Part shown: positions 18,894 through 43,549 of the stretch, one piece after another
Numbering within the stretch: the first letter of the stretch is position 1
Layout: each line of letters begins with the position of its first letter
The notes under the pieces: generated by a model
The model's database searches: none
The model's input: the letters and a program-made list of their open reading frames with translations, nothing else
What the model was told of the DNA's origin: nothing
Assembly (NCBI GenBank): GCA_030753015.1
Contig: JASMDC010000016.1
Coordinates: forward strand, 10,773-74,772
DNA length: 64,000 bases
Source: Candidatus Undinarchaeales archaeon
GTDB lineage: Archaea; SpSt-1190; JASMDC01
Direction: 5' to 3'
Position numbers and translations under genes: made by a program

Positions 18894-20888
18894 ATGTTAC
18901 ATAGAGCTCGTTTGCTCATGGTAGTCGTCATGGTCGCGTGCGTCCTGTCGGTCGCACCCAATTACGGGGACAACGACTTTCCCGTCGCACCGTTCACGGA
19001 ACAGCCGACCTGTGGTAAGGAGCTCTGTATCGTATGGAATTGCGCTTCGACCAAGCTCCCTGCAACCAACGATTACCTCACATGTTCAGAGTGGGCCTGC
19101 ACGAAGATGAACGATCGGGTATGCGCACGATGGGAGTGCCTCACCGTTGATGTTCCCGGCTCGGACGACCAGACCTGTGCTTCGTTCAACTGCACGGAGT
19201 CCAAGGATGGACGATGTGTCGATTGGGATTGCACCGACACCGACCTCCCATCGACAAACGACCGCGATACATGCAGCGAGTACCGGTGCGAACGGATCAT
19301 CGACGGTACCTGCAGGGTATGGAGATGCACAGTCGCGCCCTTTCCCGTGGACATCGAGGCCCCGCCCAACAGGCGCCCCAACTCACGACAAGCATGCTCT
19401 CGGTTCGATTGCACTGTCTGGGACGGTGACCGATGCTTTTCGTGGACCTGCACTTACTCTATCGGATATCAATCCTGTTCCAAGCTTGACTGCGTCTCCC
19501 GTCATGGGACCTCCTGTGATGCCTGGAACTGTACCGAGATGGATGTGCCGGGCCATGGTGGATACGAGGCGTGCGCCACATGGGAATGCGGGGCATGGGA
19601 CCGTATCACCTTGAACACCACATGCTCGGGCTGCACCGAGCACAACCACTGCGAATCAGGCTGCTGCCTTCTCGGCGAGTGCATCGATAAGGTCGCCGAT
19701 CCGGACAAGGACCGTTCCACATGCATCTGCTCAGGAGGTACGTGGAAGGACGAGAAGTGTTGCGGTGACGATCCCGGGGAGAGCTGGTGCTCCAGCGAGG
19801 GTGCATGCATCTCAGCGAACTGGGTCCCCGGAACGGACAGCGAGTTCTATTGCTCTCAGTGCAAGAAGGGCTCATGGAACGAGGACCGATGCTGCGTCGA
19901 TGACGAGAGCTGGTGCGGGCGTTGGGGGCGATGCCTGTACGGGACATGGCTGCCGTTGTGCAAGCAGTGCTACAGTTGCAAGAACGGAGTATGCATCTAT
20001 ACCTGCAAACCGACGGTCCAGAACGGCGACAAGAAACCTGATGATTGCATCTCCCTTGGCGGTATCTGGCGTGATGGGAAGTGCTGTGGCGACGACAAGG
20101 ACGCGGACGGGTACGGTGAGAGCTGGATCGGAACGACCGGTGAGTGTCGTGGTGGGTTCTGGTTCGAGCTCTCTGACAACCAGTTAAAGGGCCGCCTTGA
20201 AGAGGAGCGGGATAAGGAGGAGGCATCACGCAAGTTCTCAGTCCCTGAGAGCGTGCTCGTGCTCCTCGTAGTCGTGGGTTGCGGTAGCTTCCTCTACTTC
20301 TTCAATAAGCGATCGGATGACGCGGAACCCCCACCAGAACCGGGTCTCCTACCCACGCTCGAGGACGAGGGAACACCGAGCGAAGAGGCCGCGATCGATG
20401 ACGAGGACATCATTGATATGGACGAGTTCGAGGAGGAGTTCGGCGATGGTGCCGGTGGAGAAGACCAGGAACTCGAGAAAGAGGGCCAGCCTGAATCCGA
20501 AGAGGGTGAGCGCGATCTCAGCACTGACGAGATGCTCGGCGAGTTCGAATCAGAGGTTACAGAGGATGAGGATGAACTCCTCAAGGATGTAGATGAGCTC
20601 GAAGAAGGTGAAAAGCCTGAAGGGAAAGCGCCCTCATCAGCAGAGGAGGATGCGGCCACTAAGGATCCCGACGAGGACCTCTTCGCAGACCTGGGCTTCG
20701 ACGGCTACGGAAACGAGGGAGGAAGGCCTTCTCCGCGCGCTACCCGAGGATACACTGATCCCCGCGTATCGGAGCTGCAAGCCAAGCTAGACAAACTCGA
20801 CACACAGCTGGCGAAGGGGAAACTGAGCCCGGAACTCCACAATAAGATGCGGGAACGGGCCGAGAAAGAGCTCTCTGACCTTTCCTAG
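18894..20888 (+). CDS. Cysteine-rich single-pass membrane protein with acidic cytoplasmic tail and SHOCT-like C-terminus
   Basis: Signal peptide, 12 CxxWxC-type motifs, CCGDD-type repeats, TM (VLVLLVVVGCGSFLYFF), D/E-rich tail, LDKLDTQLAKGKLSPE. Confidence 0.85.
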   Translation: MLHRARLLMVVVMVACVLSVAPNYGDNDFPVAPFTEQPTCGKELCIVWNCASTKLPATNDYLTCSEWACTKMNDRVCARWECLTVDVPGSDDQTCASFNCTESKDGRCVDWDCTDTDLPSTNDRDTCSEYRCERIIDGTCRVWRCTVAPFPVDIEAPPNRRPNSRQACSRFDCTVWDGDRCFSWTCTYSIGYQSCSKLDCVSRHGTSCDAWNCTEMDVPGHGGYEACATWECGAWDRITLNTTCSGCTEHNHCESGCCLLGECIDKVADPDKDRSTCICSGGTWKDEKCCGDDPGESWCSSEGACISANWVPGTDSEFYCSQCKKGSWNEDRCCVDDESWCGRWGRCLYGTWLPLCKQCYSCKNGVCIYTCKPTVQNGDKKPDDCISLGGIWRDGKCCGDDKDADGYGESWIGTTGECRGGFWFELSDNQLKGRLEEERDKEEASRKFSVPESVLVLLVVVGCGSFLYFFNKRSDDAEPPPEPGLLPTLEDEGTPSEEAAIDDEDIIDMDEFEEEFGDGAGGEDQELEKEGQPESEEGERDLSTDEMLGEFESEVTEDEDELLKDVDELEEGEKPEGKAPSSAEEDAATKDPDEDLFADLGFDGYGNEGGRPSPRATRGYTDPRVSELQAKLDKLDTQLAKGKLSPELHNKMRERAEKELSDLS

Positions 20889-20957
20889 GTACGGAAGACG
20901 CGGTCTTAGGTTCATTTTATAAAATATACCCCCGGATACTTGTATCGGTGGTATGCA

Positions 20958-21323
20958 ATGGCTGAGACCGTTAAATTATCGATACTCTACAGCGTTGTCG
21001 TGAGCGGTATCCTTGTACTGGCCTTCGTCATCGCTTCGTTCTACGTCCCGCTCCTCGAGCTGGACCCTGAGAAGTTCATCGTGAACCTGCAGACGAACCA
21101 GTTCATCATCTCGTTCATCTTCGACTTCGTTTCGCTGGCTGCAGTGGCTCTCGGATTCGCCTCCCTCCTCCAGATCATGGAGAACGTGGAGACCGAGCTC
21201 GTCGATGGTCTTCTCGCGATCGCCCGGACAACGGCCCGGACCGCGGAGAACATCAAGGAGATCAAGGCCAAGAGCGAGGCACCGGAAAAGAAGGATAAAC
21301 CGAAGAAGGACAAGAAGGAGTAA
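20958..21323 (+). CDS. Small 2-TM membrane protein
   Basis: Two hydrophobic helices and a Lys-rich tail; TTTTATAAAA upstream. Confidence 0.75.
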   Translation: MAETVKLSILYSVVVSGILVLAFVIASFYVPLLELDPEKFIVNLQTNQFIISFIFDFVSLAAVALGFASLLQIMENVETELVDGLLAIARTTARTAENIKEIKAKSEAPEKKDKPKKDKKE

Positions 21324-21346: not shown

Positions 21347-21664
21347 ATGGCAACACGGACTAAACTCTCCTACCTCTACAGTATCGCCGTGAGCGCAATG
21401 CTCATATTCGCCGCTGTGATAGCGTCGAGCTTCCTCTCGTTCTCCGGTACTGACGTTGAATCCTTCATAACCGAGCTCTACTCCAACGCGCTCATCCTCA
21501 TCCTCATCGGGATCATCGCCGCTATTGCGGTGATCTCCCTTGGTTTCTCGTCAATGATCACGCAGTCGGAGCGCTCAAACGGCGACCTCTGCGCTCGCCT
21601 CGATGCGATCGAGCACCAGCTCGAGAAGATGAACGAACCGGAAGAGGACGCCAAAAAGGATTAA
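21347..21664 (+). CDS. Small 2-TM membrane protein, paralog of the preceding gene
   Basis: KLSYLYSIAVS versus KLSILYSVVVS; LGFSS versus LGFAS. Confidence 0.75.
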   Translation: MATRTKLSYLYSIAVSAMLIFAAVIASSFLSFSGTDVESFITELYSNALILILIGIIAAIAVISLGFSSMITQSERSNGDLCARLDAIEHQLEKMNEPEEDAKKD

Positions 21665-21689: not shown

Positions 21690-23882
21690 ATGTACAGGAG
21701 AGAAGCGCTCTTCATCATGCTTCTCCTATCGATGCTCATTTCAGCGACCGAGATCGACGTCGTTGATCCTGAGCCCGTCGAGACAGGCGTCATCATCGCT
21801 CAGGAAGGCGAATATCTGGATGTGAGGGAAGTAGTCACCGTCCATGGATCGGCCGGCAAAAAGGTCGCGTTCACGGTCCCGTCCCTCATCTCAGAGGGAC
21901 CCGACCTTGTACTCGATCCAACTGCGCTGCCCGCCAACACATCCTCGCTCGTCACGCTCGAGGCCTACTCTTGTCCCACTGCGCCCGTACACTCCTTCCG
22001 CACACTCGACGGTTGCCGACGTCGTGATCCCACGAGGGTCACGGGCAGGCTCCTTAGCGTCGGTGACGGGACGGTCGTGGAAGAGAACGATACTGGTGAT
22101 AGGTTCCTCCTACTCACGACGGAAGAGGAGAGCCTGGTGTTCAGGTACCGTGTGCTCCTTGACCCGCTCGTCACGGACCTCGACCCTTCGTTCCAGTTCG
22201 TGAAGCCCTATCTCAAGAGCGCCGATACCTTCGACCTTCGGTTCGAGAACACACCTTGCTCCACATGGACCCTTCTCACCCATACGGTGGCTTCGGAGGA
22301 CGATGTCGCAACGGAGGACGGTCCGGGACTTCTCCGGCTCTACGGCACAAGGATGACCGGGGGCTATCTGGTCAAGCTCGGTCTTATCTCATGCGCGACG
22401 CTACAGGAGTACTTCAAGCAGCAGTACCTCGTCCATGTCGACGAGCCCGCCGTCCGCGAGCTCGCCACGACCATCGCTACCAACGCCAACTCATCCAGTA
22501 TCGAGCGCCAGGCCGAGGAGCTCTTCTACTATGTGCGGGACACGATCAACTACAAGAGGGACCGCTTCGCTCCCGGACAGGACTTCCCGGAGAGTCCCCG
22601 TCAGACGCTCGAGACGAAGCTTGGCGACTGTGAGGACATGTCCATCCTTCTTATCTCGATGCTCCGTACGATCGGGCTCGATGCTAGATTGGTGCTCATG
22701 GACCTAGACCGTTCAGGCACGGACTTCACGATACGGGAACTGATGGAAGGGAACTCGCTCACCTTCAACCATGTGGCAGTCATGGCGAGCTTCGGGCCCG
22801 ATGGCCGGTTCGACAGGTCATCGGCCAAGATCATGGACGCCACCTGTAAGGAGTGTCTGTTCGGCGAAGCTACGGTCGAAGGTGTGCCATCCCTCGTCAT
22901 CGACAGCGATGATGTGATATTCCCCATCCGCTCTTCCGGAGAGTGCGAGGGTATGAAGTGCGGTACCCGATGCTACTCCGGGCTCGGCCGGTGCTGTTCG
23001 GACTGGGACGGTGAGGAATGGCGTCCTAACCAAGAGTGCTGTAATTCAGCCGATTGCCTGGGCAACTCCCTCTGCGAGAACGGTCAATGTGCGGTATGCG
23101 ACGGACGCATCTGCGGTGGAGTGTGCTACTCACGAAAGGACCACAAGCGTCCCTGCTGCTCGCACCTCGACTGCGGTACCTTCGAATGGTGTGAGCAGTA
23201 CAGCTGTACGCTCGACAACTCGCGGCTCACGACCGTCGGTGCGGGACTGCTCGGGTTCATCGTCCTTTTCCTTGTGTACAGGCTTCTCAGGCGGACCACG
23301 TGCCCACATTGCGGTGCGCACATACCCGCCCGCTCGAGCTTCTGCACAGCATGCGGTGACGAGATACTCTCATCTGAGGAAGAGGAGCGTCGTGCAGAGG
23401 TTGACGCCATCAAGCGATACGCTGTACAGGCCCGCAAGCGGGGAGCGTCCTTCGACACGATCGCCGACCGCCTCCTGGAACGGGAGTACGAAACGGACGT
23501 GGTCGACCTCGTCCTCGGCGATGTACGTAATGAGGAAAGCCGCCCCAAACGCAAGCCGAAAAAGAAGAGCAATAGCGGCCTCGACGAGGCCATGCAGTAC
23601 GTGCTCGCCCGGCGTGAGGAGGGTTTCTCCGACGAGGCGATCCTGCACTCCCTCGAGCAGCGAGGCTATCAACCGGACGTCGTGTCCAAGGCCATGTCAG
23701 ACGAAGGCCAGGTGGATCGGATCCGTCGCTACATCGCTTCTCGCAGGGAGGAAGGCTTCTCGGAACGCGAGATCCAGGAGGCGCTCGCACACGCCGGCTA
23801 CGCCGCCCATGATGTAAGGGAGGCACTCGCTCCACTCACCAAGGGACCGAGCACCGACGACACCTTCAACGAACTTTCGTGA
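21690..23882 (+). CDS. Exported transglutaminase-like domain protein with Cys-rich region, TM, zinc ribbon and C-terminal helical repeats
   Basis: Signal peptide; GDCED / NHVAV / MDAT triad motifs; TM; CPHCG...CTACG; three YxxxxRxxGxS repeats. Confidence 0.85.
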   Translation: MYRREALFIMLLLSMLISATEIDVVDPEPVETGVIIAQEGEYLDVREVVTVHGSAGKKVAFTVPSLISEGPDLVLDPTALPANTSSLVTLEAYSCPTAPVHSFRTLDGCRRRDPTRVTGRLLSVGDGTVVEENDTGDRFLLLTTEEESLVFRYRVLLDPLVTDLDPSFQFVKPYLKSADTFDLRFENTPCSTWTLLTHTVASEDDVATEDGPGLLRLYGTRMTGGYLVKLGLISCATLQEYFKQQYLVHVDEPAVRELATTIATNANSSSIERQAEELFYYVRDTINYKRDRFAPGQDFPESPRQTLETKLGDCEDMSILLISMLRTIGLDARLVLMDLDRSGTDFTIRELMEGNSLTFNHVAVMASFGPDGRFDRSSAKIMDATCKECLFGEATVEGVPSLVIDSDDVIFPIRSSGECEGMKCGTRCYSGLGRCCSDWDGEEWRPNQECCNSADCLGNSLCENGQCAVCDGRICGGVCYSRKDHKRPCCSHLDCGTFEWCEQYSCTLDNSRLTTVGAGLLGFIVLFLVYRLLRRTTCPHCGAHIPARSSFCTACGDEILSSEEEERRAEVDAIKRYAVQARKRGASFDTIADRLLEREYETDVVDLVLGDVRNEESRPKRKPKKKSNSGLDEAMQYVLARREEGFSDEAILHSLEQRGYQPDVVSKAMSDEGQVDRIRRYIASRREEGFSEREIQEALAHAGYAAHDVREALAPLTKGPSTDDTFNELS

Positions 23883-23889
23883 GCAAGCC

Positions 23890-25161
23890 ATGCGCGTCGC
23901 CATCGAGACATTCGGGTGCACTGTCAATCAGGCGGACAGCGAGATGATCGCACGTCTTCTTGAGGAGGCAGGTCACAAGCTCGTGGACCTTGCGTCCGCG
24001 GATGCCGTCGTCGTGAACACGTGCTGCGTCAAGTCCGCTACCGAGCGAAAGGTGCTCAAGCGTCTTGCTGCCATCCCGGTCCCAGTCGTCGTCACCGGGT
24101 GCCTTCCCAAAGCGGACTCCGAGGCGGTCCTTGCCGTACGGCCGGACGCTGCCCTTGTAGGTCCCCGTGAGCTCGACCTGGTACCTGCAGCCCTCGCCTC
24201 ACTGGGTACTTCGTCCCCTTCGCGTGCGCTGGAGCATCGTCGCTTGGACAAGGCGGGGCTCGGCAAACGTCGGACACCCGGCATCACGGCACGCATCCCC
24301 ATCGCCGAGGGATGCCTGGGCGCCTGCACCTATTGCCAGACCCGGATCGCCCGTGGACCGCTCTTCAGTTTCCCGCACGATGGACTTGTCGAGGAGGCCC
24401 GTCGCGCCGTTGAGGCAGGATGCCGTGAGCTCTGGATCACCGCGCAGGACACGGCCGCCTATGGTGCCGACACAGACGACTCTCTAGCGAGCCTTATTGC
24501 AGACATCGCGGCCATCGATGGCGAGTTCCGCATCCGCATCGGCATGTGCAATCCCGATCTCATCGCCTCACAGCTCGAGGATATCCTCAAGTGCATGAGC
24601 GGGACCAAGGTCTACCGTTTCCTACACCTCCCAGTACAGTCCGGGAGCGACCGGGTACTCGCCCATATGGGCCGCAGGTACACCCGTGAAGGGTATCTCG
24701 ACATCGTCAGGAGATGCCGGGAGACCGTCCCCGACATCCTGCTCGCCACCGACGTCATCGTGGGCTATCCGACCGAGAGCGAGGACGACTTCGATGACAC
24801 GCTCGACCTGCTCCGCCTCGCACGACCCGATATCGTCAACATCACTCGTTTCAGCCCTCGTAGAGGCACGCCCGCAGCAGAGCTCAGAGCGCTTCATGGT
24901 CGCATCCTCAAGAGTCGTTCACGCCGTACCGCCGAGCTGTTCCAACAGATGCAACGTGAGGCGAACAAGGGCAGAGTAGGGACCACTGTACGGGCTCTCG
25001 TGCGTGAAGAAGGCAGGAAAGGAGGTATGCTCGCTCGGACCGACAGCTACCGTCTCGTGGCCGTCCCTTACGGTACGCTCGGTACCTGGACGGTGGTCCG
25101 TGTCACCGGCTCGACGCCCACGTACCTCATAGGCGAGCCCCTCGAGGATGAAAAGCCTTAA
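23890..25161 (+). CDS. mtaB: tRNA t6A37 methylthiotransferase (archaeal MtaB/CDKAL1-type radical SAM)
   Basis: ETFGCTVNQADSE, NTCCVK, GCLGACTYC, HLPVQSGS, C-terminal TRAM domain. Confidence 0.85.
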   Translation: MRVAIETFGCTVNQADSEMIARLLEEAGHKLVDLASADAVVVNTCCVKSATERKVLKRLAAIPVPVVVTGCLPKADSEAVLAVRPDAALVGPRELDLVPAALASLGTSSPSRALEHRRLDKAGLGKRRTPGITARIPIAEGCLGACTYCQTRIARGPLFSFPHDGLVEEARRAVEAGCRELWITAQDTAAYGADTDDSLASLIADIAAIDGEFRIRIGMCNPDLIASQLEDILKCMSGTKVYRFLHLPVQSGSDRVLAHMGRRYTREGYLDIVRRCRETVPDILLATDVIVGYPTESEDDFDDTLDLLRLARPDIVNITRFSPRRGTPAAELRALHGRILKSRSRRTAELFQQMQREANKGRVGTTVRALVREEGRKGGMLARTDSYRLVAVPYGTLGTWTVVRVTGSTPTYLIGEPLEDEKP

Positions 25162-25191: not shown

Positions 25192-26010
25192 ATGTCGCGC
25201 GAACGCACGTCCTCCAAGCGTCGGAAACGTACTAGGTCCGGAAAGAGTACCGGCAAGGTGTACGAACACACACTCATCTTCGTCATCCGGGACGTGCATG
25301 GCTACATCGACCGATTAAGACAGGTGCTTGAGCTGGCCGGGGCCGAGGGCGCCAACGTGCTCGACATAGGTGGCGACTTCACGAACTTCGGTGACCGATC
25401 AACGCTCGAGGACGTCCTCGCGTCCATTCCCAGTGATCGCAGTGTCGTCGTTGTCCACGGGAACCACGATCCACCCGACCTCGTCGAGACCGTCCCACGG
25501 TATCTTCACGGGACCGCACGCAGCATCCGTGGGCTCTGGTTTCTGGGCCTGGGCGGTAGCAATCCTATCGGTTTCTTCCCCGCTGAGCACACGGAGGAGG
25601 ACCTCGCCGGATTACTCACCGGTGGGCTGGAGAAGGTACCGAACGATGCACCACTGGTGGTAGTGTCCCATGTACCCCCACACGAGGTCCATGACTACGT
25701 TCCTTTCGTCGCCCGACACGTGGGCTCCACCGCCCTGCGGCAGTTCATCGCTGAGCGTCGGCCGATGCTGGTCACCTGTGGCCACATCCACGAGTCGTTC
25801 GGTTGGACGGCGTTCCACATCACGAAGAAAGGCCTCAAGGACGTCGAAACGGGCACATCGGTCCGGATCGGCAAGGAGGCGGACACCGTGGTCATAAACG
25901 CCGGCAGCCTCCGTGACCGGCGCTACGGCGTGGTGCTCATCGAAAGGACCGCCGAGGGGATCAGGGTCACACCCGAGGTCCGGCTGTTGCCCGATGACGG
26001 CCGGTTCTAG
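25192..26010 (+). CDS. Calcineurin-like metallophosphoesterase
   Basis: DVHG, GGDFT, GNHD, SHVPP, CGHIHE. Confidence 0.88.
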   Translation: MSRERTSSKRRKRTRSGKSTGKVYEHTLIFVIRDVHGYIDRLRQVLELAGAEGANVLDIGGDFTNFGDRSTLEDVLASIPSDRSVVVVHGNHDPPDLVETVPRYLHGTARSIRGLWFLGLGGSNPIGFFPAEHTEEDLAGLLTGGLEKVPNDAPLVVVSHVPPHEVHDYVPFVARHVGSTALRQFIAERRPMLVTCGHIHESFGWTAFHITKKGLKDVETGTSVRIGKEADTVVINAGSLRDRRYGVVLIERTAEGIRVTPEVRLLPDDGRF

Positions 26011-33588: not shown

Positions 33589-33642
33589 TTTAATGCACAC
33601 TCCTTTCAGCATTACGCTTGGGACAGACAAGTCCGAACCTGA

Positions 33643-33651
33643 TTTATAAAA
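33643..33651 (-). promoter_or_regulatory. TATA box of the S-layer gene
   Basis: TTTTATAAA on the minus strand about 55 nt upstream of the ATG at 33588. Confidence 0.65.
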
Positions 33652-33835
33652 GTTTGGTAAAACTGGTCTTACTTGCGAGTAGTAACACGTCATTCGTCGA
33701 ACATCGCTACGTCAATCTTGTGTAACTCATGAATGTTAATAATCCTTAATAAGTGACCTGTGAAACGTGGTACATGCACTGTATCTATGGTCGCGAGCAA
33801 GTGTCCTGAGCCCGGTAAAGTAGCCATCATCACGC

Positions 33836-34612
33836 TCACACGTCACCGAAGATCTCCGCCGAGGGATAGACCTTGATGCCCCCGGGGGCCGCTATCTTGA
33901 ACGGATAGATCTTCGTGCTGTGGTTCGTCGAGCGCATCTTACGCACGGCCAGTGCCCGCATGAACATGTTCTTCTCCTTGATGAAGTAGAGGACGATGAC
34001 ACCGTCGACGACGAACTCCTCGACACCGTAGACCGAGTACTTGTTGGCCCCCTCCTCCCTTTCCGAGATCATGAAGGTCGTGCAGTTGACCCTTCGCAGG
34101 ATGCGCGACAGGTCCATGAAGGAACGACGGATCTTGTACTGGTCGTTGAAGTACATCCCAAGGATGGTCGCAGAGTCGAGGACGAGCCGCTTGGCCCCGA
34201 TCTCCATCACCGAATCCTCGATGGTGGTGACCAGAGATTCCCACTTGTAGAGCTCGGGCTCGACGACATTGAGCTTCTTGTCCTTGATTAGACCGCGAAC
34301 GTCCCAGCCGAAGTGACAGGCATTCTCTATGATCTGTTTGGGTGGCTCCTCGAGAGTAAGGTAGATACCGGGTTCTTCTTCGTACTGGGCCCCATGGCAG
34401 AGGAACTGCATCCCGATCGTCGACTTCCCGTTCCCGCACGAACCTGTGATGAGAACAAGGTTGTTGCGTGGGATACCCCCCTGGAGCAGGTCGTCGAGGC
34501 CAGGGACCCCCGACCTCACGCGTGTGACCTGTGACGGCTTCCCGAGCTCCTCGCCGTCGGTCAGCTGGGTCGTCGTCTCTTCTTCTTCCTCCTCGATCTC
34601 ACCAAAGGCCAT
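33836..34612 (-). CDS. Single-domain KaiC-like (RecA-superfamily) ATPase
   Basis: SGVPGLDDLLQGGIP, Walker A GSCGNGKS, TLEE, RLVLDS, VEEFVVDGVI, VRKMRSTNH. Confidence 0.9.
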   Translation of the reverse strand: MAFGEIEEEEEETTTQLTDGEELGKPSQVTRVRSGVPGLDDLLQGGIPRNNLVLITGSCGNGKSTIGMQFLCHGAQYEEEPGIYLTLEEPPKQIIENACHFGWDVRGLIKDKKLNVVEPELYKWESLVTTIEDSVMEIGAKRLVLDSATILGMYFNDQYKIRRSFMDLSRILRRVNCTTFMISEREEGANKYSVYGVEEFVVDGVIVLYFIKEKNMFMRALAVRKMRSTNHSTKIYPFKIAAPGGIKVYPSAEIFGDV

Positions 34613-34911
34613 ACTGGGCTTATTCTTGTGGTGTAGTATTAAAAAAGTGACATCGGGGCACCCTTGCATTACTTACGGACCGATGGTCCTTTGACCGGTG
34701 AAATGATATCATTATCCGGCCTGCCGAAAAAGGACACCACAAGGGCGCTATCGACAACTGACGAAGGGCGAATCGACGATAAACACTCGTAAATACGCCA
34801 ATCCTTGCCCCGCTCCGATAGAAAATGCCGATCACAAGTCTCGGAACGGTCCGGAACCGTAATATAGGCCCGTTCGGACCGCATAGTGGAAATACTGGCC
34901 ATTTCAGGGTA

Positions 34912-35011: not shown

Positions 35012-38000
35012 ATGGTGAACGAACGATTGCACAGAACCATTTTTATGGCATTGATCTGCGTATTCTTGCTGGCGGCGATGGGAACTAGCGTAAATGCTCG
35101 TTTCCAAAATGACTATTCCACGACCGCAAATATCCGCTATTATTGTAACGGAGCGAAGATCACCTCAACAGACTCAGATTCCGATAGCATGCGGGATTGT
35201 TTCTCCACGTATCCAAAAGGCACGAAAGATGGCAATGACATCCAAGAAGGATCCCATCCATCGGTAGTAAACAAGATCATAACAAGGTGCAAGAGTGACA
35301 TCATCGGCGAAAATGTCTACGACCAGGATTCCAGGTGCGACAACTGTCGCTATGTCTCCCATGTCTACTACTCCCTCGTCCAACCCACCAACGCTGGTTT
35401 CGGCGGCGATGAGGTGAAGTGTACCCAGGTCAAGTTCCGTAAGTGCTCGATGTCCGGCTATACCGGAAGCAAGTCATGCATCATTGAGAACGATGGCAAG
35501 AAGGCCGGACGGAATTGCGAGGCGGACGGGAAGATTACAGCGTGTGTCGACAAGTGTTGTCCTCAGGGTACGGGCTGCTCCGGTGGAAAGTGTGTGCCGA
35601 AGAACACCGGTACGGGAACAGGCACTGGTACCGGTACTGGCACCGGCACGGGAACGGGTACCGGCACTGGTACCGGCACGGGAACAGGTACTGGTACGAG
35701 CAGTGAGCAGGTCTTCCACATCTGCAAGGTTGCTTCAGGTTCGACGATAAGTTACGCGTGCCAATCAGGATGTACCGATAAGGTTGTTCCACACGGATTC
35801 TCCAAGCAAACTGAATGCACGGCCGCGATGAATCTTGCAAAGAATACCTGCCCCTATCAAAAGGAAGGTAAGACCCTAGCGATCAAGCTCGGCGAGTGCG
35901 CTGTCGATGGAGAAAACCACTATGAGGCCCGATGCCTCCTTACAAGGGTGACCGATAAAGCAGTGAAGTCCTTAATGTTCCCTGATAAAAAATGCTCGAA
36001 GTCCGCCAAGGACGCAGCTACCAATAACCAGGACCAGACGAACGCAGCTGCTAACTTCGACGATAGTGCCGAAAATACACGCAAAGATGCAAACAAATAC
36101 ACTGAAGCAAATAATGCCCTCGAAGCGTGCAGGAAGAAGTACCCCGGGCAGGAGGCGGAAAAATGCACGAAAGAGCAGGAGGCTGTAGCCAACGCCAAAG
36201 GGAAGGTGGACACTGCATACAAAGAGCTCAAAGGAAAGTACGATACGGAATGCAAGGAGCCGATCCCCGAGGATAAAAAGGCCACTTGTGCGAGCATGAA
36301 AGACGAGCTCGATAAGACCAAGAGCGAACTGCTCGACGCCGGCCTTAACAAGTGCTGCAAGAAGGAAAATACCTATTCCATAGAAGGCGCGTGCAAGGAC
36401 GGTGCGACCGAGGAGTCCGACACGACGAAATGCAAGCAAGAAGAGAGCGTCTGCTGCCAGGAGACAAAGGATGGCACAAAGTCGTTCCTGACCATCGCGA
36501 GGAAGGAATGCAAGGACGGCAAGGACAAGAACGAAAAGGCGTACACACGCACCGTCGAATCGTCGGCCACGGCCCAGAAGAAGGGGGACCCCGAGCTGAT
36601 CAAGGTGGACGGCGCGACCACGCCCGCCCAGCTCAATCCAGCGTCGATCGACTGTTCAAATATCGGAGAGAGCGACTACAACCGCAAGAAGGACCCCGTC
36701 CTCAACCTGTGCGATCACATGAAGAAGATGCGCACGGCCTTCAACAACATCGACGCGTTCTACTTCGGGAAGAAAGGCCAGGTCTCGGGCCTGCTCGATT
36801 ATCTCAAGATCCTCAAGGACGCCTTCAAGGACCAGTGCGATGAATGCAACAAGGCGTTCAATACCTTCAAGGGTGCTGAATACCCGAACTGCGGTAACGC
36901 CGACGTCAAAGAGCGTGCGACCATCATGAAGCTGCAGTACTCGATCGATCAGATCGCTGCGGCCGGGAAGGATGACTTCGGCCCGAAGCTCTGTGATACC
37001 GCAGCCGAGAACGTCTGCCTGGGCGATGAGGCCCGTAAGTGCGCGTTCGACGGTGAGAAGGCCGGTGTTCATAAGAAAGCGATCGAGCAGGCCAAGGCAT
37101 GCGGAGTCTGCGTCGTCATGTCGTGCTGCGCTGGCAAGGACGTGAAGGCCGGCGGGTTCGACGATGCGGATTGCTCGGAGAAGAAGATCAATCCCCCGGA
37201 AGGACCCTGCGGCTCCAAAAAGAACGGTAATGGGATAACCCTCTCTGGTACATGGCAATGCAGAAGGGACGAGGTCCAGATCAAGAAGGTGAGGTCCTAT
37301 GACCTTGGTATCACAGCCCTCAAGCATGATGCGCTCAAGGACGAGATGTGCGATGGTGGCGAATCCGACTATGTTGAATGCAATGTGGATGGAGCGGGCG
37401 GCAAGCCCAAAGAATGCGCAACAGCGGGCACAAGCTCACCGACAAGCGCTTGCAAGGATATCCCGGACATCGTTGACAAGGGACTGTATCCTGATCAGGA
37501 TTGCACCGACACGGTCTGGGACGATCCCGATAGCGATGATAAAGGCAAGATCGCCGACAACAAGAAGATGAAGTGGTGCAAAGCCCTCACCAAGAAGAAC
37601 GAGAACAGGGGAATGCTCTGCAAGTACAAGGAGAAGTTCGACTGCCAGAAGGAGCTCTCGGACTGTGACTGGGAAAAAGGCGGCAATTACGAGAAGGATA
37701 GCAATGGGTACGCCGCCAACGTCATCGAGTGCTACGGCTACCCCGAGAACAAGGAAGAGCCGGGTTGCGACGACTACAAGCCCGAGAAGAGGAAAGAGAT
37801 CAAGGCGGAGTCGCTCAAGAAGTACACCTACTGTACCTACAACACGGGCGATAACCAAGGCTTCTTCTGTCAGTATGAAGGACAAGACAAGAAGTCAAGG
37901 TGCCAGGACTGGGACGCTAAGGGAGCCGTCATCGAGGTCGGCATCTCCGAGAACGCGGCGGTCCTCGAATCCGCGCTGCTCGACTGTCAGACGCAGGCCG

Positions 38001-41000
38001 CTCAGCTCAAGGACGTGTGCACGCTCTCCGGGTCCAAAGTGCTCAACGACAACAAGGGAGACCTCAGTCCGTGCGCCATGGAGAAGATGATCGACGACAT
38101 GATCGACTTCGTCGAGAACTTCCACTACAGGTACGCGGGCAAGAACGGCACCCTGCAACAGATCACGAATATCATGAAGAAGACCCAGGGATGCAACGCC
38201 GACAGTACCTTCGTACCGGATGCCGAGGAGTTCACGTCAGAGGCCAAGCCGAAGTCCAACGATGACATCATCGACTCCTATAAATACAAGGGCGCCTCCA
38301 AGAAGGGGGAGACCAAGCCTTCCGCTCAGAACGACGTGGTCATCGTCTACGAGATGAAGGCCATCCACGCGCTCCGGACGGACCAGGAGAACTATGGCAT
38401 AGGGCTCAAGAAATTCCAGGCCCAAGTCAAGGCCCTCCTGCAGATGTTCCAGGCCGAAAAGGGATTCATGGATGACATCGAGAGCGCACAGAAGTTCGAC
38501 TATAAGGTCTTCATCCCTGCCGATTTCGCGCTCGGTCCTACAAAGACGGGCGACGCCCCCATGTATGATGGGTACGCCTGGAAGGTCTTCGAAGATAACA
38601 AGGACGTCTGCACGACCGTGGGCTCCAAATGCACGGATATGCAGGACATCAAGGATGAGAAGAAGAAGCTTGAGACGAATACCAAGACCGCGATGGCTAT
38701 GTGCAAAGGATGCTTCGTGCTCCCGCAAGTGATCGGCAAATGCAAGAACCAGGGCGATGAATGCAGCCAATGGAGCGTCTGGATGAGCGGGATAACAGGT
38801 AAGGACTGCACAATCAAGGGAACGTCTTCTGCGGAGGACTTCGACTCGCGTGACAATAAAAACGCCGATGCATGGGACGAGCCGATCAAGGGTGCTGCGA
38901 AGAACCTCGCCGACAAGACGGTCATGGATCCCGAGGCTCTCTTCAACAAGATCGATGGGTGTTTCGACTACTCGATCCAATCCGTTGACGCGCTCGAGGA
39001 GTGCAAGAGCAAGAGCGACGGTGATTCATGCCGCGGCGGCATCTGCTGCTTCAAGGAATGCACCGACGCCACGGCCTGCCACCCCTATGACCTGAAGTGC
39101 AAGTGGAGCAAACAGGACCAGCTCCCCGAGTCCCAGGGCCACAAGTGCGGCGGCACAGAGGTCGAAGGCAGGTGCTGCTGGGGCCAGTGCATCCCAGGCG
39201 AGGGCAACTGCGGCCAGGAGTCTCCGTTGTGCAATGGCCGCCCCGACGGGAGTGAGTGCGCTCAGCAGGGCACGCAGGGCATCTCCAAGTGCTGCACCAT
39301 TAGTAACAAGAACTACTGCATCCCGACCGTACAGTGCAGCGTCACCGATACGTGCTATGGCAAGAACGTCGGCGATTCCTGCAACAACGGGCAGGGCATC
39401 TGCTGCGCTGGCATGGGTATTCTAGGTACCAACCACATCCCGTACTGCGAGCAGAACAGTAACGTGATAGGGAGCTCCGGTAAGGAGTGGCAGAAGTTGG
39501 GGCAGAGAGTCAATATCTTCAAGAACTGCGGCTCACAGTACCAGCAGCACGACAGTTGCCGGTACGAGGGCCAGCCGTGCGATCCCTTCGGCGGCTCCGG
39601 CGGTGGCTATCAAGGCGGCTACAGCAGTGGCAATCAACAACAGGGCGGCGGCTGGCGCAACTATAATAACAACGACCAGTACCGCTACTCCAGCTACCCT
39701 GGTAGCGGCGGCACCTGCTGCAAGATGTGGGGCGGTGCCACGGTCGCCAAGGTGGACCTCGTCCAGGTGTTCACCTGCTCGCGCACCGCGTGTCGGAAGG
39801 AGGAACCCCCAGCCGAGGAAACTCCTGAGGAAGAGGAGGAGGAAAAGAAGGACGAGGAAGCTGAAGATCCCGAAGCTCGCGAGATCTGCGAGGAGAAGGA
39901 GAGCGGCGACTTCTGCAAGTACGGCGAGGACGACAACAAGGGTCTGTGCTGCACCAAGGACGGCGAGCTCTACTGCAACACCCAGGTCGACGAGTGCCCC
40001 GAGGACTGGGGCGACATGACCTGCGAGGACAAGGAACTGGGCGATGCCTGCCTGCGGAACACCGAGAACGAGGGTAAGTGCTGCGAGCGCGAGGGATCCG
40101 ATACTCTCTTATGCTGGCCCGGCGCTACCAAGTGCAAGACCGAGATCGACGATCTTGATACAGATCCCGATAATCCCGCCGTGTGCAACGAGGTCTGCAA
40201 GACCTGCGCGGATGCCGAGAACTCGCACTGCCATGCCCAGACCGGCAACTGTGTTTGCGAGCGGGGCAACGAGTGGAGGCTCACGAGTCAGAAGTGCAAC
40301 CAGAACGTCCAGGAACCGTCGAACTCGAAGTACCTCGGCTGCTGCCGTGCAATGTTCGAGGTCGACCTGAGCATCGAGGAGCCTGCCAACACGGACGAAC
40401 CATATATCGACGGCAGTTCCACGCACAGCCTGGATACGAACATCGTCTTCGAGCTCAAGAATCCCACCGAGTCACAGGTGTTCGTGTGCGAGGAGTGGTG
40501 GAAGATCTACAAGAGCTCCGGCGGCTGGAAGAACGTCGACCAGGTCATGCAGGAGGCTCCGACCGGGTGCAAGGGCGTCTCCTCGAAGGAGAGTATCTAC
40601 TGGGACCAAAAGGGTGTCCTGGACGATGACATCGAGGACATGGAGGCCGGCAGCTACAAGGTCGAGGCCTGCTACTGCACCAAGGTCGAAGGGACCTCAT
40701 GCGCATCCGGTCACAAGAAGTGCATAGACCGCAAGTTCCGTATCGTGGACCCGTCGTCCCAATCGGGCGACGACCAGGACTTCAGCATGTGTATCGCTCC
40801 AGCGAGCATCACAACTACCGTGAGCTTCGACAAGTGCCAGACCATCACTTCCGAGACGGGTTACTGCTGCAAGTACGGGTTCAAGGAGGAGCCGATCTCG
40901 CTATCGTGCTCCACCGACTCCTGCGCCACCCGCCCCGATGGCACCGAGTGCCAGGGCGGCAATGGCATCTGCAAGGACGGAGTGTGCGCCGATATACTCG

Positions 41001-43549
41001 ATCCCGACGACGACGAGTGCGCCGACAAGGAGGACGGCGAGTCCTGTGATGACGGCAATGGCGCCTGCAACGAAGGACGATGCACAGAGCTCACCGATCC
41101 CGACGAGTGTGCCGACAGAGAGGACGGTGCTAGCTGCAACGGCGGCAAGGACGTGTGCGTCGACCACCGGTGCGTTGATGTGCTAGATCCCGTGGACGAA
41201 TGCTTCGACCCCACGGTGCCTCTCAAGAAGGAGGACGGTACTCCCTGCAACGGCGGCAATGATATCTGCAAGGAAGGTAAGTGTGTCGACGTCATCCCCA
41301 GCGGGAACTGCACGGGTGCTGCGAACGGCGACACCTGCAAGAACGGCATGGGCATCTGCACCGACGGAAAGTGCGTCGAGAAGATCCCCAACAACGACGA
41401 GTGCGAGTCCCTTGTAGATGGCGAGCCGTGCAATAACAACGGTGGCGTCTGCACCGAGAGCAAGTGTGTCGATATCATCCTGCCCCCGCCGCAGTGCTAC
41501 GACAAGACGAACGGCGAGTCCTGCAACGATGGCGCTGGCGCCTGCAATGAGGGCGAATGTGTCGATATAATCGAGGACAACACCGAGTGTGGTTCAAAGG
41601 AGGACGGTCTCCCGTGCGCAGCGGGCGCAGGTATATGCGAGGCCAATAACTGTGTCGAGGTAGTATCGCCCGATGAGTGCCGCGACAAGAGCGATGCCAC
41701 CTCGTGTGACAATGGAAACGGCATGTGCGAGGAGTATCGGTGCCTCGAGATCATTCCTGGCGATGAGTGCGACGGCATGCCCGAAGGCACCTCGTGCGGT
41801 GTCGGACGGGGCGCGTGCATAGAAGGCCAGTGCTTCAAGGTCACCTCGGGTGCGAACGAGTGCGTCGGCAAGGTCGACGGCGCGGCATGCAAGGATGGCA
41901 TCGGCTCCTGTCTGAACGGCAAATGCGCAAAGGTCACAAGCCCCATCAGGGAGGAGTGCCTGCGCAAGCTCAAGGACAACGAGCGGCTGGCTGCCCGGTG
42001 CGAAGAGGCCGCCCGCGAGGTGGACATCACCTGCGAGACCGACTGCATGGCCGAGTACATCGAGAGCAACCTGCAGAAGGACTGCCTGAAGAGCTGCAAC
42101 GAGAATCCTGTCCTCAACGACAAGGTCGTCGCCTGCGGCATGGACGAGTCCTGTCTGCGGGTCGAAAAGGCGCTGTCACCAGAACTCCATGTCACCCTGC
42201 GCATGATGCGCGGCGATGACTACTCCAACACGTTCTATATCGGAGAGGAGACGCAGATCGATGTCATCATCGACAACGCGGGTGAGTTCACCTTCAGCGG
42301 TGCCGTCGAGGTCAAGCTCAAGACCGTCGAGGACTGCGACTGCCCCGAATGTCCGACCGGCTACACCTGTGACTGTGTGTGCGAGGAGAAGGTGTCACCC
42401 GTAACGACCAGGGAAATCGCACTCCTGCGACCCGGTGAGACCTTCAGGTACAGGACCAATGCGATGGTCCTTGACGAGAGCTACACGGGCAAGTCCGTGC
42501 AGCCCTACGCCGTGGTCACAAAGAGCAACAAGGCCATCTACTCTGCAGAGGGCGAGCTCGTGAACTTCATCGAGATGGGTTCTCTAGAGCTCACCGACGC
42601 CTACTTCGAAGTGAACGGAGAGAGCACCACGTCGGCCTACCCCGGCGTTACCGCTGATGGTAAGTTGAAGATAACCTCCGAATGGTTCCCGCTCAACGTG
42701 AGCGTGTTCCTAGCGGTCGAGCAAATCGAGATCGAGGGATCCCGGGCGACGTATACTATTACGGAACCGGTAAGAGACCTCGTGCTCGCTGCCGAGGCCT
42801 ATGAGGTTACCACTCGACAGATGGACGTTATCATCCGCATCGGGGTCGAGGTCAAGGCCCCCGATGGCACGGTCGTGCTACGAGATATCCTGATGGAGCA
42901 AGGTGCGGGTACCGCATCCTGCTCAGGTAAGGTCATGACCACCAAGTGCGAGACGGACAAGACAACGATAGAGATGTCCTACCCGTCAGCGTACCTGGAG
43001 GTCAAGGCCCTGAAGCTCCGTGTGGTGGACGCCCTCTTCAAGGACATGGAGGGCAAGGCCGTGAACGCCCGGTTCGAGGACACACAGGTCATCGCGACCT
43101 TGGAGGTCCAGAACATCGTTCCGTTCTCGTTCGACGGGAACATCGAACTGCTGGTGATGAAGGACGATGGCAGCGAGGTGGCCGAGGCACACACCACGGT
43201 CATCGCGAACCTGGCCGAGCGTGGCGCCAAGCGGACGATCCAGACCCAGCCGTTCGTGGCCGCCATGGGCAGCACCTACAGGATCTTCCTGCTGGCCAAG
43301 GCTGATGATGGCACTGTATGGAACGAAGAGTCCGTGAGCGAGTACCTCTTCCCCTATGGCTCGCTGAAGGTCCAGGACGCCGGGCAGATGTCGGGCGACA
43401 GGCAGGACATCAAGACGAACCTTATCTTCGCGTCCTGCCAGCTGAACGTCGAGTGCCGTGAGTGCCTGCCGGTGTGCGAGCTCCATGTGGATCCGAACAC
43501 CTGTCGGCTGACGACCGAGCACTGCGGGTGCACCTGCGACGCACGGTAA
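35012..43549 (+). CDS. Giant secreted cysteine-rich protein (2845 aa)
   Basis: Signal peptide, TG linker, several Cys-module types, C-terminal Ig-like beta domains; no C-terminal TM. Confidence 0.88.
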   Translation: MVNERLHRTIFMALICVFLLAAMGTSVNARFQNDYSTTANIRYYCNGAKITSTDSDSDSMRDCFSTYPKGTKDGNDIQEGSHPSVVNKIITRCKSDIIGENVYDQDSRCDNCRYVSHVYYSLVQPTNAGFGGDEVKCTQVKFRKCSMSGYTGSKSCIIENDGKKAGRNCEADGKITACVDKCCPQGTGCSGGKCVPKNTGTGTGTGTGTGTGTGTGTGTGTGTGTGTGTSSEQVFHICKVASGSTISYACQSGCTDKVVPHGFSKQTECTAAMNLAKNTCPYQKEGKTLAIKLGECAVDGENHYEARCLLTRVTDKAVKSLMFPDKKCSKSAKDAATNNQDQTNAAANFDDSAENTRKDANKYTEANNALEACRKKYPGQEAEKCTKEQEAVANAKGKVDTAYKELKGKYDTECKEPIPEDKKATCASMKDELDKTKSELLDAGLNKCCKKENTYSIEGACKDGATEESDTTKCKQEESVCCQETKDGTKSFLTIARKECKDGKDKNEKAYTRTVESSATAQKKGDPELIKVDGATTPAQLNPASIDCSNIGESDYNRKKDPVLNLCDHMKKMRTAFNNIDAFYFGKKGQVSGLLDYLKILKDAFKDQCDECNKAFNTFKGAEYPNCGNADVKERATIMKLQYSIDQIAAAGKDDFGPKLCDTAAENVCLGDEARKCAFDGEKAGVHKKAIEQAKACGVCVVMSCCAGKDVKAGGFDDADCSEKKINPPEGPCGSKKNGNGITLSGTWQCRRDEVQIKKVRSYDLGITALKHDALKDEMCDGGESDYVECNVDGAGGKPKECATAGTSSPTSACKDIPDIVDKGLYPDQDCTDTVWDDPDSDDKGKIADNKKMKWCKALTKKNENRGMLCKYKEKFDCQKELSDCDWEKGGNYEKDSNGYAANVIECYGYPENKEEPGCDDYKPEKRKEIKAESLKKYTYCTYNTGDNQGFFCQYEGQDKKSRCQDWDAKGAVIEVGISENAAVLESALLDCQTQAAQLKDVCTLSGSKVLNDNKGDLSPCAMEKMIDDMIDFVENFHYRYAGKNGTLQQITNIMKKTQGCNADSTFVPDAEEFTSEAKPKSNDDIIDSYKYKGASKKGETKPSAQNDVVIVYEMKAIHALRTDQENYGIGLKKFQAQVKALLQMFQAEKGFMDDIESAQKFDYKVFIPADFALGPTKTGDAPMYDGYAWKVFEDNKDVCTTVGSKCTDMQDIKDEKKKLETNTKTAMAMCKGCFVLPQVIGKCKNQGDECSQWSVWMSGITGKDCTIKGTSSAEDFDSRDNKNADAWDEPIKGAAKNLADKTVMDPEALFNKIDGCFDYSIQSVDALEECKSKSDGDSCRGGICCFKECTDATACHPYDLKCKWSKQDQLPESQGHKCGGTEVEGRCCWGQCIPGEGNCGQESPLCNGRPDGSECAQQGTQGISKCCTISNKNYCIPTVQCSVTDTCYGKNVGDSCNNGQGICCAGMGILGTNHIPYCEQNSNVIGSSGKEWQKLGQRVNIFKNCGSQYQQHDSCRYEGQPCDPFGGSGGGYQGGYSSGNQQQGGGWRNYNNNDQYRYSSYPGSGGTCCKMWGGATVAKVDLVQVFTCSRTACRKEEPPAEETPEEEEEEKKDEEAEDPEAREICEEKESGDFCKYGEDDNKGLCCTKDGELYCNTQVDECPEDWGDMTCEDKELGDACLRNTENEGKCCEREGSDTLLCWPGATKCKTEIDDLDTDPDNPAVCNEVCKTCADAENSHCHAQTGNCVCERGNEWRLTSQKCNQNVQEPSNSKYLGCCRAMFEVDLSIEEPANTDEPYIDGSSTHSLDTNIVFELKNPTESQVFVCEEWWKIYKSSGGWKNVDQVMQEAPTGCKGVSSKESIYWDQKGVLDDDIEDMEAGSYKVEACYCTKVEGTSCASGHKKCIDRKFRIVDPSSQSGDDQDFSMCIAPASITTTVSFDKCQTITSETGYCCKYGFKEEPISLSCSTDSCATRPDGTECQGGNGICKDGVCADILDPDDDECADKEDGESCDDGNGACNEGRCTELTDPDECADREDGASCNGGKDVCVDHRCVDVLDPVDECFDPTVPLKKEDGTPCNGGNDICKEGKCVDVIPSGNCTGAANGDTCKNGMGICTDGKCVEKIPNNDECESLVDGEPCNNNGGVCTESKCVDIILPPPQCYDKTNGESCNDGAGACNEGECVDIIEDNTECGSKEDGLPCAAGAGICEANNCVEVVSPDECRDKSDATSCDNGNGMCEEYRCLEIIPGDECDGMPEGTSCGVGRGACIEGQCFKVTSGANECVGKVDGAACKDGIGSCLNGKCAKVTSPIREECLRKLKDNERLAARCEEAAREVDITCETDCMAEYIESNLQKDCLKSCNENPVLNDKVVACGMDESCLRVEKALSPELHVTLRMMRGDDYSNTFYIGEETQIDVIIDNAGEFTFSGAVEVKLKTVEDCDCPECPTGYTCDCVCEEKVSPVTTREIALLRPGETFRYRTNAMVLDESYTGKSVQPYAVVTKSNKAIYSAEGELVNFIEMGSLELTDAYFEVNGESTTSAYPGVTADGKLKITSEWFPLNVSVFLAVEQIEIEGSRATYTITEPVRDLVLAAEAYEVTTRQMDVIIRIGVEVKAPDGTVVLRDILMEQGAGTASCSGKVMTTKCETDKTTIEMSYPSAYLEVKALKLRVVDALFKDMEGKAVNARFEDTQVIATLEVQNIVPFSFDGNIELLVMKDDGSEVAEAHTTVIANLAERGAKRTIQTQPFVAAMGSTYRIFLLAKADDGTVWNEESVSEYLFPYGSLKVQDAGQMSGDRQDIKTNLIFASCQLNVECRECLPVCELHVDPNTCRLTTEHCGCTCDAR
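35606..35698 (+). repeat. (Thr-Gly)15-Thr coding repeat
   Basis: ACN-GGN hexamer array. Confidence 0.95.
40922..41940 (+). repeat. Eleven tandem ~31-aa 4-Cys modules (C-x4-DG-x2-C-x2-G-x-G-x-C-x2-G-x-C)
   Basis: Examples: CADKEDGESCDDGNGACNEGRC and CVGKVDGAACKDGIGSCLNGKC. Confidence 0.92.

Follow-up and report, generated by a model that had tools for sequence, protein, structure and literature searches.

Our analysis of a 64,000-nucleotide (nt) stretch of DNA from a Candidatus Undinarchaeales archaeon (the window, contig JASMDC010000016.1 of assembly GCA_030753015.1) showed that the large, cysteine-rich proteins encoded on either side of its S-layer gene have dozens of counterparts elsewhere in the genome. 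The ten-gene locus that holds them (18894..43549 of the window) is therefore probably a loose neighbourhood of envelope genes which samples a genome-wide expansion of giant exported proteins, and not one machine. An earlier note on this DNA, made from the window's letters alone, had proposed a system centred on the S-layer and matured by a transglutaminase-like enzyme. That note was right on extracellular contact proteins and wrong on the S-layer-centred, enzyme-matured system: the gene neighbourhood alone did suggest a machinery for coat maturation, and the rest of the genome does not back it.

The window lies on contig C25 of the source assembly (G000; 3.85 Mb in 117 contigs, 60% GC, 98.9% complete, 5% contaminated). 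All ten open reading frames (ORFs) of the locus were confirmed in position and size. They are listed here with sizes in amino acids (aa), and with signal and transmembrane (TM) stretches as predicted by a Kyte-Doolittle hydropathy scan:

18894..20888, + strand: p664, 664 aa; signal peptide, Cys-rich ectodomain with two repeat types, TM helix at 448-466, acidic cytoplasmic tail.
20940..21323, + strand: tm127, small 2-TM protein; likely start at ATG 20958, with a TATA-like box upstream in the gap after p664.
21347..21664, + strand: tm105, small 2-TM paralog of tm127 (35-39% identical).
21690..23882, + strand: tg730, 730 aa; exported, with a transglutaminase-like core of cysteine-protease fold (~245-416), Cys-rich stalk, TM helix at 511-529, cytoplasmic zinc ribbon and helical repeats.
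23890..25161, + strand: MtaB-type tRNA methylthiotransferase (mtaB), housekeeping; starts 7 nt after tg730; TIGR01578 398.4 bits (cut-off 314.7).
25192..26010, + strand: calcineurin-like metallophosphoesterase; PF00149 Metallophos, E 6.5e-13.
26007..30716, - strand: p1569, 1569 aa; unique N-terminal 600 aa, ~770 aa of CGDG-type Cys repeats, beta-sandwich, TM helix at 1493-1511, Q/G/Y-rich tail.
30844..33693, - strand: S-layer protein gene, 949 aa; likely start 33588; PF05124 67.2 bits (cut-off 23.9, E 1.9e-18), TIGR01564 59.1 bits (cut-off 25).
33836..34669, - strand: single-domain KaiC/RadA-like ATPase, 277 aa; PF06745 221.9 bits, E 9.4e-66.
35012..43549, + strand: p2845, 2845 aa; predicted to be secreted, with signal peptide, (GT)n linker, Lys/Glu-rich Cys-helical region, Cys-repeat head and a 560-aa C-terminal module.

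Four of the products (p664, tg730, p1569 and p2845) begin with an N-terminal hydrophobic stretch and are rich in cysteine, with 54 of 664 residues (8.1%), 29 of 730 (4.0%), 142 of 1569 (9.05%) and 205 of 2845 (7.2%), respectively, compared with a genome median of 1.33% over 3097 crude ORFs. This agrees with the earlier report of four exported Cys-rich proteins within 25 kb, and the other genes named there (the S-layer gene, the KaiC-like ATPase, the two small paralogous membrane proteins, mtaB and the phosphoesterase) were recovered with Pfam and NCBIfam. The S-layer protein passes the cut-offs of both of its families and has an export signal. The KaiC-like protein has one KaiC domain and reaches 135 bits on TIGR02655, the model of the double-domain circadian KaiC, whose cut-off is 546.

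Comparison with the same-genus genome (G001; 3.6 Mb, ~89% identity, the sole same-genus genome in our species set) gave ratios of nonsynonymous to synonymous substitution (dN/dS) of 0.04-0.30 for all ten genes, so that all ten are constrained by purifying selection. The giants have the highest dN, whereas dN/dS peaks in p2845 (0.30; dN 0.218) and the S-layer gene (0.25), with 0.13 for p664 and 0.14 for p1569. At aligned positions, cysteines were kept in 142 of 142 cases in p1569 (74% for other residues), 177 of 180 in p2845 (67%) and 34 of 34 in p664 (83%). Conservation so far above that of other residues fits structural disulfides or metal sites, and supports the view that the locus giants are exported, disulfide-type Cys-rich proteins which would lie at the cell surface or be secreted.

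The giants of the locus resemble little that has a name. Cut into nine pieces, p664, p1569 and p2845 matched no Pfam family even at E<=1, apart from noise and a sub-threshold DUF4215 match (on p1569, the DUF4215/Myxococcus-type Cys repeat gave 15.4 bits, under the cut-off of 27, E 0.024), and they matched no NCBIfam model. Sequence search of the PDB returned nothing for tg730 or p1569, (GT)n-linker noise for p2845 and two weak YadA matches for p664 (E 0.24-0.88). As for the cytoplasmic tails described in the earlier note, the zinc ribbon of tg730 stands (Zn_Ribbon_1, PF13240, residues 538-557, E 7.1e-6), its helical repeats gave a sub-threshold RecX_HTH1 match alone, and the SHOCT-like end of p664 has no profile behind it (no Pfam family at E<=0.01), its C-terminal helix pattern being seen by eye.

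When giants were defined as ORFs of at least 600 aa with at least 5% Cys, the genome yielded 64 of them on 39 of its 117 contigs, amounting to 7.5% of its DNA. The earlier note had set its proposal against a spread of such proteins through the genome, and spread through the genome is how we find them. With looser limits (at least 250 aa and at least 3.5% Cys) this crude census counted 182 ORFs, and among the ORFs of at least 1000 aa, 48 of 108 are Cys-rich. An N-terminal hydrophobic stretch is present in 48 of the 64 giants and a TM-like stretch near the C-terminus in 21. The locus holds three strict giants in 24.7 kb, where 0.41 would be expected from 64 in 3.85 Mb; at the same time, when the giant labels were dealt at random over all ORFs, 53% of 2000 deals contained at least one triple as tight as that of the locus. 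Four such tight triples were observed (P=0.0145), and giants thus cluster as a class, mostly as tandem paralogs on contigs C53 and C36. Sliding windows with at least three giants (17 of 4353) all fell on C36; their 500-bp grid missed the locus itself, and the triple-span test was used instead.

The three strict giants of the locus are not relatives of one another: p664, p1569 and p2845 represent three different families with disjoint sets of paralogs. We also observed a fourth giant family, with a ~470-aa domain in common (36-72% identity), on contigs C35 (38009-50564), C64 (98-4282), C21, C50 and C102 of the source assembly.

The p2845 family numbers ~21 members, p2845 and ~20 other giants sharing its C-terminal module of ~550-560 aa. 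The earlier note had called p2845 unanchored; the hydropathy scan indeed found no C-terminal TM helix, but the protein ends in this conserved module, which is common to its ~20 paralogs. The module runs from helical hairpins through four beta-sandwiches to an 8-Cys tail, and its structural model (mean predicted local distance difference test score, pLDDT, 88.3) shows the hairpins stapled by cysteines and the tail carried on a small beta domain. Foldseek matched the model to tandem stalks of immunoglobulin (Ig)- and MG-like domains, such as those of mastigoneme, alpha-2-macroglobulin, complement C3, integrin legs, antigen I/II and PrgB (E 3e-9 to 5e-7; TM-scores 0.15-0.26).

Ahead of this stalk the family members differ. 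Among 19 paralogs of p2845 in the same genome, six have heads with M23 and/or NlpC/P60 peptidase domains, one has FG-GAP repeats, one has three C-type lectin domains, one is Kazal-like and ten hold nothing known; cluster representatives of the family add a head with a C39-like peptidase. In p2845 itself the head is made up of ~ten 4-Cys units (1966-2300) together with further Cys modules that belong to no family, and has neither M23 nor NlpC/P60. Surface adhesins and displayed enzymes are built in this way, with exchangeable heads on a conserved stalk, and murein peptidase heads in an archaeon point to bacteria as targets, which for p2845 would hold by extension from its paralogs. Searched against 1.84 billion representatives, a profile of 20 C-terminal modules found only 51 proteins, and 27 matched at E<=1e-30. 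Among 33 fetched representatives that match an ORF of this genome, nine are at least 99% identical to it and the others 21-92%, with both AT-rich-like and very GC-rich-like compositions, suggesting that other uncultured lineages carry the family too. Within the host's class, ~21 copies are present in each of the two same-genus genomes and none in the 15 others.

The other two families are built in their own ways. The repeat and C-terminal anchor modules of p1569 are common to 21 other ORFs, and its relatives carry CARDB/NEW3, FixG_C Ig-like and Laminin_G_3 (ConA-like lectin) domains, all of them typical of archaeal surface proteins. Two full-length paralogs of p664 are encoded on contigs C50 (687 aa) and C81 (883 aa), and in the latter the ectodomain is kept and the acidic tail is replaced by tetratricopeptide (TPR) repeats. 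Such a swap of tails fits a receptor-like plan, and the receptor-like single-pass architecture previously ascribed to these proteins stands for some of them. Among 5.8e9 proteins, p664 found itself and one 30%-identical protein in a word- and length-limited search, which is not proof of absence, and the ESM Atlas gave no usable match for it. The p664 ortholog of the same-genus genome (L015, G001:C7 ~6627-6628) is matched in two adjoining segments that lie in different reading frames, with the join near residue 188, possibly through a frameshift or an assembly error.

A search for neighbours common to the p2845 family brought out a gene pair, first on seven contigs, whose members A (~930 aa) and B (~610 aa) overlap stop to start and lie directly beside giants. 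The recurring unit with giants is A, a pilin-like B and a giant. The genome has 19 A and 20 B genes in total; 10 of 19 cassettes adjoin a Cys-rich giant, 12 if two 2.7-2.8-kaa proteins (kaa, thousand aa) with 3.0% Cys are included, and seven do not. One cassette lies in the window, outside the ten-gene locus, 14.5 kb past p2845 (58056-62704) and with no giant adjoining:

58056..60866, + strand: 'A' protein, 936 aa, signal anchor, 2.8% Cys; one of 19 paralogs.
60857..62704, + strand: 'B' protein, 615 aa; N-terminus with RGQ and a hydrophobic stretch, resembling a class III (type IV prepilin-like) signal; one of 20 paralogs.

By eye, 14 of the 20 B proteins have a prepilin-like N-terminus, [KR]GQ followed by ~20 hydrophobic residues, and the genome has four Peptidase_A24 genes. 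Neither A nor B matched Pfam (A at E<=0.5). A single B query gave 25 matches in the source genome, 26 in the same-genus genome and none in 39 other genomes. One may picture from these parts a modular display system, in which the 19 A and pilin-like B cassettes would build type-IV-filament-like anchors bearing ~60 giants (p2845, p1569 and perhaps p664, with the window cassette acting in trans), and tg730 would be a LapG-like release protease. With the heads (M23, NlpC/P60, lectin, FG-GAP and new Cys-repeat modules), a marine archaeon that has a large genome but is related to the tiny DPANN archaea could then catch bacteria and break them open; we regard the scheme as rather unlikely.

The gene set of the locus, unlike the A-B cassette, does not recur. 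Loci of the p664 paralogs have no transglutaminase gene, small TM proteins or giants. Paralogs of the small TM proteins occur at five other loci amid housekeeping genes, without transglutaminase genes or giants apart from the copy on C21, which touches a giant. The genome has 12 Transglut_core genes, and four of them lie within 10 kb of a giant compared with 20.6% expected (P=0.22), that is, without enrichment; by coordinates, none of the seven KaiC paralogs adjoins a giant. Among relatives, the set is conserved in the same-genus genome alone: at the S-layer loci of eight more distant genomes, homologs of KaiC, the transglutaminase, p664, p1569 or p2845 were found in none, and one weak repeat match aside, none of the nine partners of the S-layer gene was present. 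These eight S-layer neighbourhoods also contain no ORF of at least 250 aa above 5.5% Cys. The one partnership that does return at paralogous loci is that of an S-layer-type gene with a giant, in three of three cases.

The S-layer gene reads by its sequence signals as a separate, monocistronic transcription unit, with a TATA box of its own and a terminator. The most likely start, M36 (window 33588), has a TATA box and a ribosome-binding site ahead of it (a TTTATAAA box and a GGAG-type site) and is followed by a signal-like N-terminus; directly past the stop lie a GC hairpin (stem-loop) and then a T-run, which together look like a terminator. Contigs assembled from RNA libraries cover the gene as a unit (30931-33611 and 30935-33611 in two runs of one study, 30868-33572 in another study). 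Such contigs contain parts of p2845 and p1569 as well; p664, tm127, tm105, mtaB and KaiC are not covered, which in data made up of contigs only is no sign of silence, and none spans the S-layer gene and a neighbour, which for the same reason gives no verdict on operon structure. Contig depths were 50-111 for the S-layer gene and 2-11 for the giant fragments, and cannot rank expression.

Several points weigh against reading the locus as a loose neighbourhood. The ORF census behind it is crude, resting on longest non-overlapping ORFs and hydropathy in place of a gene caller, and the species set holds two genomes of the lineage, which limits the reach of the synteny comparison. The same-genus genome retains every locus gene in order, split across two contig ends, though it is of the same genus at ~89% identity; amino acid identities are 96-92% for the small proteins (tm127 96%, tm105 95%), KaiC and the phosphoesterase, 89-87% for tg730, the S-layer protein and MtaB, 85% for p664, 76% for p1569 and 68% for p2845. 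The TATA-like box after p664 is followed by tm127, tm105, tg730, mtaB and the phosphoesterase, co-directional and with gaps of 7-30 nt, making a small operon that includes tg730 possible. The S-layer ORF is the best of three S_layer_C genes in the genome (contigs C25, C35 and C64), and all three lie within 5 kb of a strict giant (128, 4446 and 1823 bp), compared with 345 of 3033 other ORFs (11.4%), a test made post hoc. The S-layer ORF is also one of only three, among 3033 non-giant ORFs, that are flanked on either side by a giant no more than 1.5 kb away. Finally, a central segment of the S-layer protein is found in two Cys-rich giants, C31_34019 and C73_111281.

The S-layer points, together with the RNA contigs that hold parts of p2845 and p1569 besides the S-layer gene, argue for an envelope island in which p1569 and p2845 would be S-layer-associated, inserted in the lattice or docked on it, so that their adjacency would be functional, with the transglutaminase, KaiC and the small TM proteins playing no part. 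The Pfam match of the S-layer protein runs over 69-914 with the middle mostly unaligned (a long central insert), and its residues ~310-409 are common to five other large proteins at 26-74% identity, the two giants included. Against the island, the giants adjoining the other two S_layer_C genes (C35 and C64) belong to the fourth family and not to the three of the locus, and as they share one family the two loci may be a single duplicated block. In addition, none of the eight distant relatives shows a giant close to its S-layer gene, promoters are separate and a terminator stands between the genes, ~20 p2845 paralogs lie elsewhere, and the statistics are post hoc with n=3. We consider the island unlikely, and take the proximity of S-layer genes and giants as a weak but real tendency of envelope genes to lie together, and not as a defined system.

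The enzyme tg730 raises a further alternative. It matches PF01841 Transglut_core at 48.5 bits (cut-off 23; E 1.2e-12; residues 258-340), the domain lies outside the cell by hydropathy-based topology, and an alignment with 13 relatives (14 sequences) keeps the triad columns, with C314 invariant, H361 at 90% or more and D384 in a shared Asp column, judged by eye. Profile, Cys-His-Asp triad and papain-like core fold together place it in the transglutaminase superfamily, as the earlier note had proposed. The structural model has a mean pLDDT of 44.9, with 363 of 486 residues below 50, and is unreliable outside the core (60-94). In a structural comparison (VIA Z scores) the core came closest to the putative cysteine proteases 3isr (11.9; root-mean-square deviation, rmsd, 3.2 over 120 aa) and 3kd4 (11.8), followed by TglA (10.4), a transglutaminase (9.8), LapG (4fgo; 9.3, with 126 residues superposed at rmsd 4.4), factor XIII (8.8) and the pseudomurein endoisopeptidases PeiW/PeiP (8.3). 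As these matches mix proteases (LapG, PeiW/PeiP) with cross-linkers (factor XIII, TG2/3), the fold cannot choose between cutting and cross-linking. Most prokaryotic transglutaminase-like enzymes are proteases, and the target that LapG cleaves is a giant adhesin; on these grounds we rank trimming or release above cross-linking for tg730, with low confidence. Word- and length-limited searches with tg730 and with its core found the protein itself, its G001 ortholog (the one full-length relative) and one weak match each, which is not proof of absence.

On this footing tm127, tm105 and tg730 could form a LapG-like control operon, in which the anchored protease would sense a signal inside the cell through its zinc-ribbon and helical tail, and trim or release giants such as p664. 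The three genes are co-directional with gaps of 23-25 nt, with a TATA-like box only ahead of tm127; tg730, with its conserved triad and its likeness to LapG and the putative cysteine proteases, combines, alone among the 12 transglutaminase-like proteins, a Cys-rich stalk with a TM helix and a zinc ribbon, and the set is kept in the same-genus genome at 89-96% identity. Against it, TglA, factor XIII and PeiW score much like LapG, the small-TM paralogs sit amid housekeeping genes, and the p664 paralogs have no such neighbours. The gene run moreover goes on into mtaB after 7 nt, so that the enzyme is most tightly joined to a housekeeping gene, closer than to any giant; the model is unreliable outside the core, and the role of LapG is drawn from general knowledge. 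We think this arrangement quite improbable.

The scheme of the earlier note, in which the S-layer serves as the base for four Cys-rich proteins that tg730 cross-links, with the KaiC-like ATPase included, is very hard to sustain. In its favour, every part exists and is exported as described, the triad of the extracellular enzyme domain is intact and the block is conserved in the same-genus genome. But giants are scattered genome-wide, transglutaminase genes are not enriched near giants nor KaiC paralogs beside them, paralogous loci lack the set, nothing is conserved beyond the genus (0 of 8 distant genomes), the S-layer gene is by its sequence signals a unit of its own, and mtaB is closer to the enzyme than any giant.

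Under the preferred reading, a loose neighbourhood within a genome-wide expansion, the genome would encode at least 64 giant, Sec-exported, disulfide-stabilised mosaic proteins in several lineage-specific families on ~7.5% of its DNA, three of which, plus tg730, lie around the S-layer gene. Each giant would be exported and then folded oxidatively by DsbA-like and CcdA-type machinery encoded elsewhere in the genome. The earlier note had proposed looking for disulfide machinery, and part of it is there: nine domain hits to DsbA-like Thioredoxin_4, N-terminally membrane-anchored and with CPFC/CPYC motifs, and five DsbD_TM hits, all elsewhere in the genome; VKOR had no match in this 98.9%-complete genome, with DsbB and PDO not searched for. 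p664 and p1569 would be held in the membrane by one C-terminal helix, with variable cytoplasmic tails, while p2845 would be released, or held non-covalently through its Ig-like stalk and 8-Cys tail, presenting a variable head that in its paralogs can be an M23 or NlpC/P60 peptidase, a C-type lectin or FG-GAP repeats. tg730 would work on the outer face as a Cys-His-Asp enzyme, and is likelier to cut, in the manner of the bacterial transglutaminase-like cysteine proteases or isopeptidases, than to cross-link. What these proteins share may be a role in contact with, and partly attack on, other cells or particles. The data establish that the genes are real, along with their export signals, cysteine conservation, family structure, folds and the absence of a recurring gene set; disulfides, location at the surface, substrates and function are inferred from these.

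It follows that a widespread marine archaeon spends ~7.5% of its genome on undescribed families of giant Cys-rich exported proteins, and the stalk-and-head family and the pilin-like cassette provide concrete candidates, open to experiment, for the means by which such archaea make contact with cells around them or attack them. At least half of the window's sampled words were found in 12 of the 24 sequencing-run rows listed, all of them marine or seawater metagenomes and one a possible source. The findings also bear on a lineage that is itself odd: the source and same-genus genomes (3.85 and 3.6 Mb; 99% complete, 5% contamination) are classed among 15 genomes of 0.6-1.2 Mb, which make up the remainder of the host's class. 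They are either large-genome members or sisters of a DPANN-type class, or misplaced, or mixed bins.

Some further features of the window lie around the locus. Two tandem DUF1670 proteins with helix-turn-helix motifs (17182-18961, - strand; E 1e-72 and 5e-67) are encoded divergently upstream of p664, and could be regulators or mobile-element remnants. Farther upstream, at 7813-9351 (+), 13765-15984 (-) and 15945-16937 (-), are genes for a gamma-glutamyltranspeptidase, two nucleoside-diphosphate (NDP)-sugar epimerases/dehydratases and a thioredoxin-reductase-like flavoprotein, which might concern envelope thiol or glycan chemistry. Directly past the p2845 stop (43640-43755, - strand) lies a tRNA with a CAU anticodon and a ~44-nt intron-like insert, found with Rfam at 58.9 bits and missed by ARAGORN.

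In the literature on Cys-rich giant archaeal proteins and large-genome Undinarchaeota, with most subscription journals outside coverage, we found no description of these families, of the stalk-and-tail module or of the A-B-giant cassette. Several known systems nevertheless invite comparison. The S-layer protein is like those of the Methanococcales/Thermococcales type: its N- and C-terminal domains score above the cut-offs, it carries a signal peptide, and its gene comes with a strong-looking promoter and a terminator of its own. It differs in its long central insert, with a segment (~310-409) that occurs in other large proteins. The p2845 module shares with the Ig/MG-like stalks of adhesins and of alpha-2-macroglobulin/complement a row of four beta-sandwiches; TM-scores of 0.15-0.26 make this a likeness at the level of domains, the module has no thioester region, and nothing named corresponds to the Cys-stapled helical hairpins that precede the sandwiches or to the 8-Cys tail that follows them. 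The LapA/LapG/LapD system of Pseudomonas, as generally known, likewise pairs a giant surface protein with an extracytoplasmic transglutaminase-like cysteine protease, to which the tg730 core is similar (Z 9.3); here, by contrast, tg730 is itself membrane-anchored with a zinc-ribbon tail, the linkage of transglutaminase and giant is not recurrent, and a LapD-type receptor was not seen, though no search was aimed at one.

Nearer to the possible function of the p2845 family are the small archaeal peptidoglycan hydrolases described as killing bacteria (PMC12352652), in a paper whose main text does not contain the string 'Undinarchae'. Both there and in 6 of 19 p2845 paralogs, M23-type murein peptidase domains occur in exported archaeal proteins. 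The published hydrolases are small, modular proteins with peptidoglycan-binding domains from Halobacteriales and Nanoarchaeia, whereas here the domains are inserts in Cys-rich giants of 1.9-2.2 kaa on a common stalk. Large Cys-rich surface proteins have been proposed to serve cell contact in DPANN archaea, namely Ca. Huberarchaeum crystalense (PMC6792436). Those are also large exported archaeal proteins, some of them Cys-rich, and the host here is classed with small-genome archaea; the likeness is by description only, and the present case differs in a 3.85-Mb genome, at least 64 copies, several families, a conserved C-terminal module and enzyme heads. Finally, the giant genes of predatory bacteria (bioRxiv 10.1101/2023.11.21.568195) resemble ours, again by description, in coding for very long exported proteins tied to cell-wall degradation, and differ in being bacterial and much longer.

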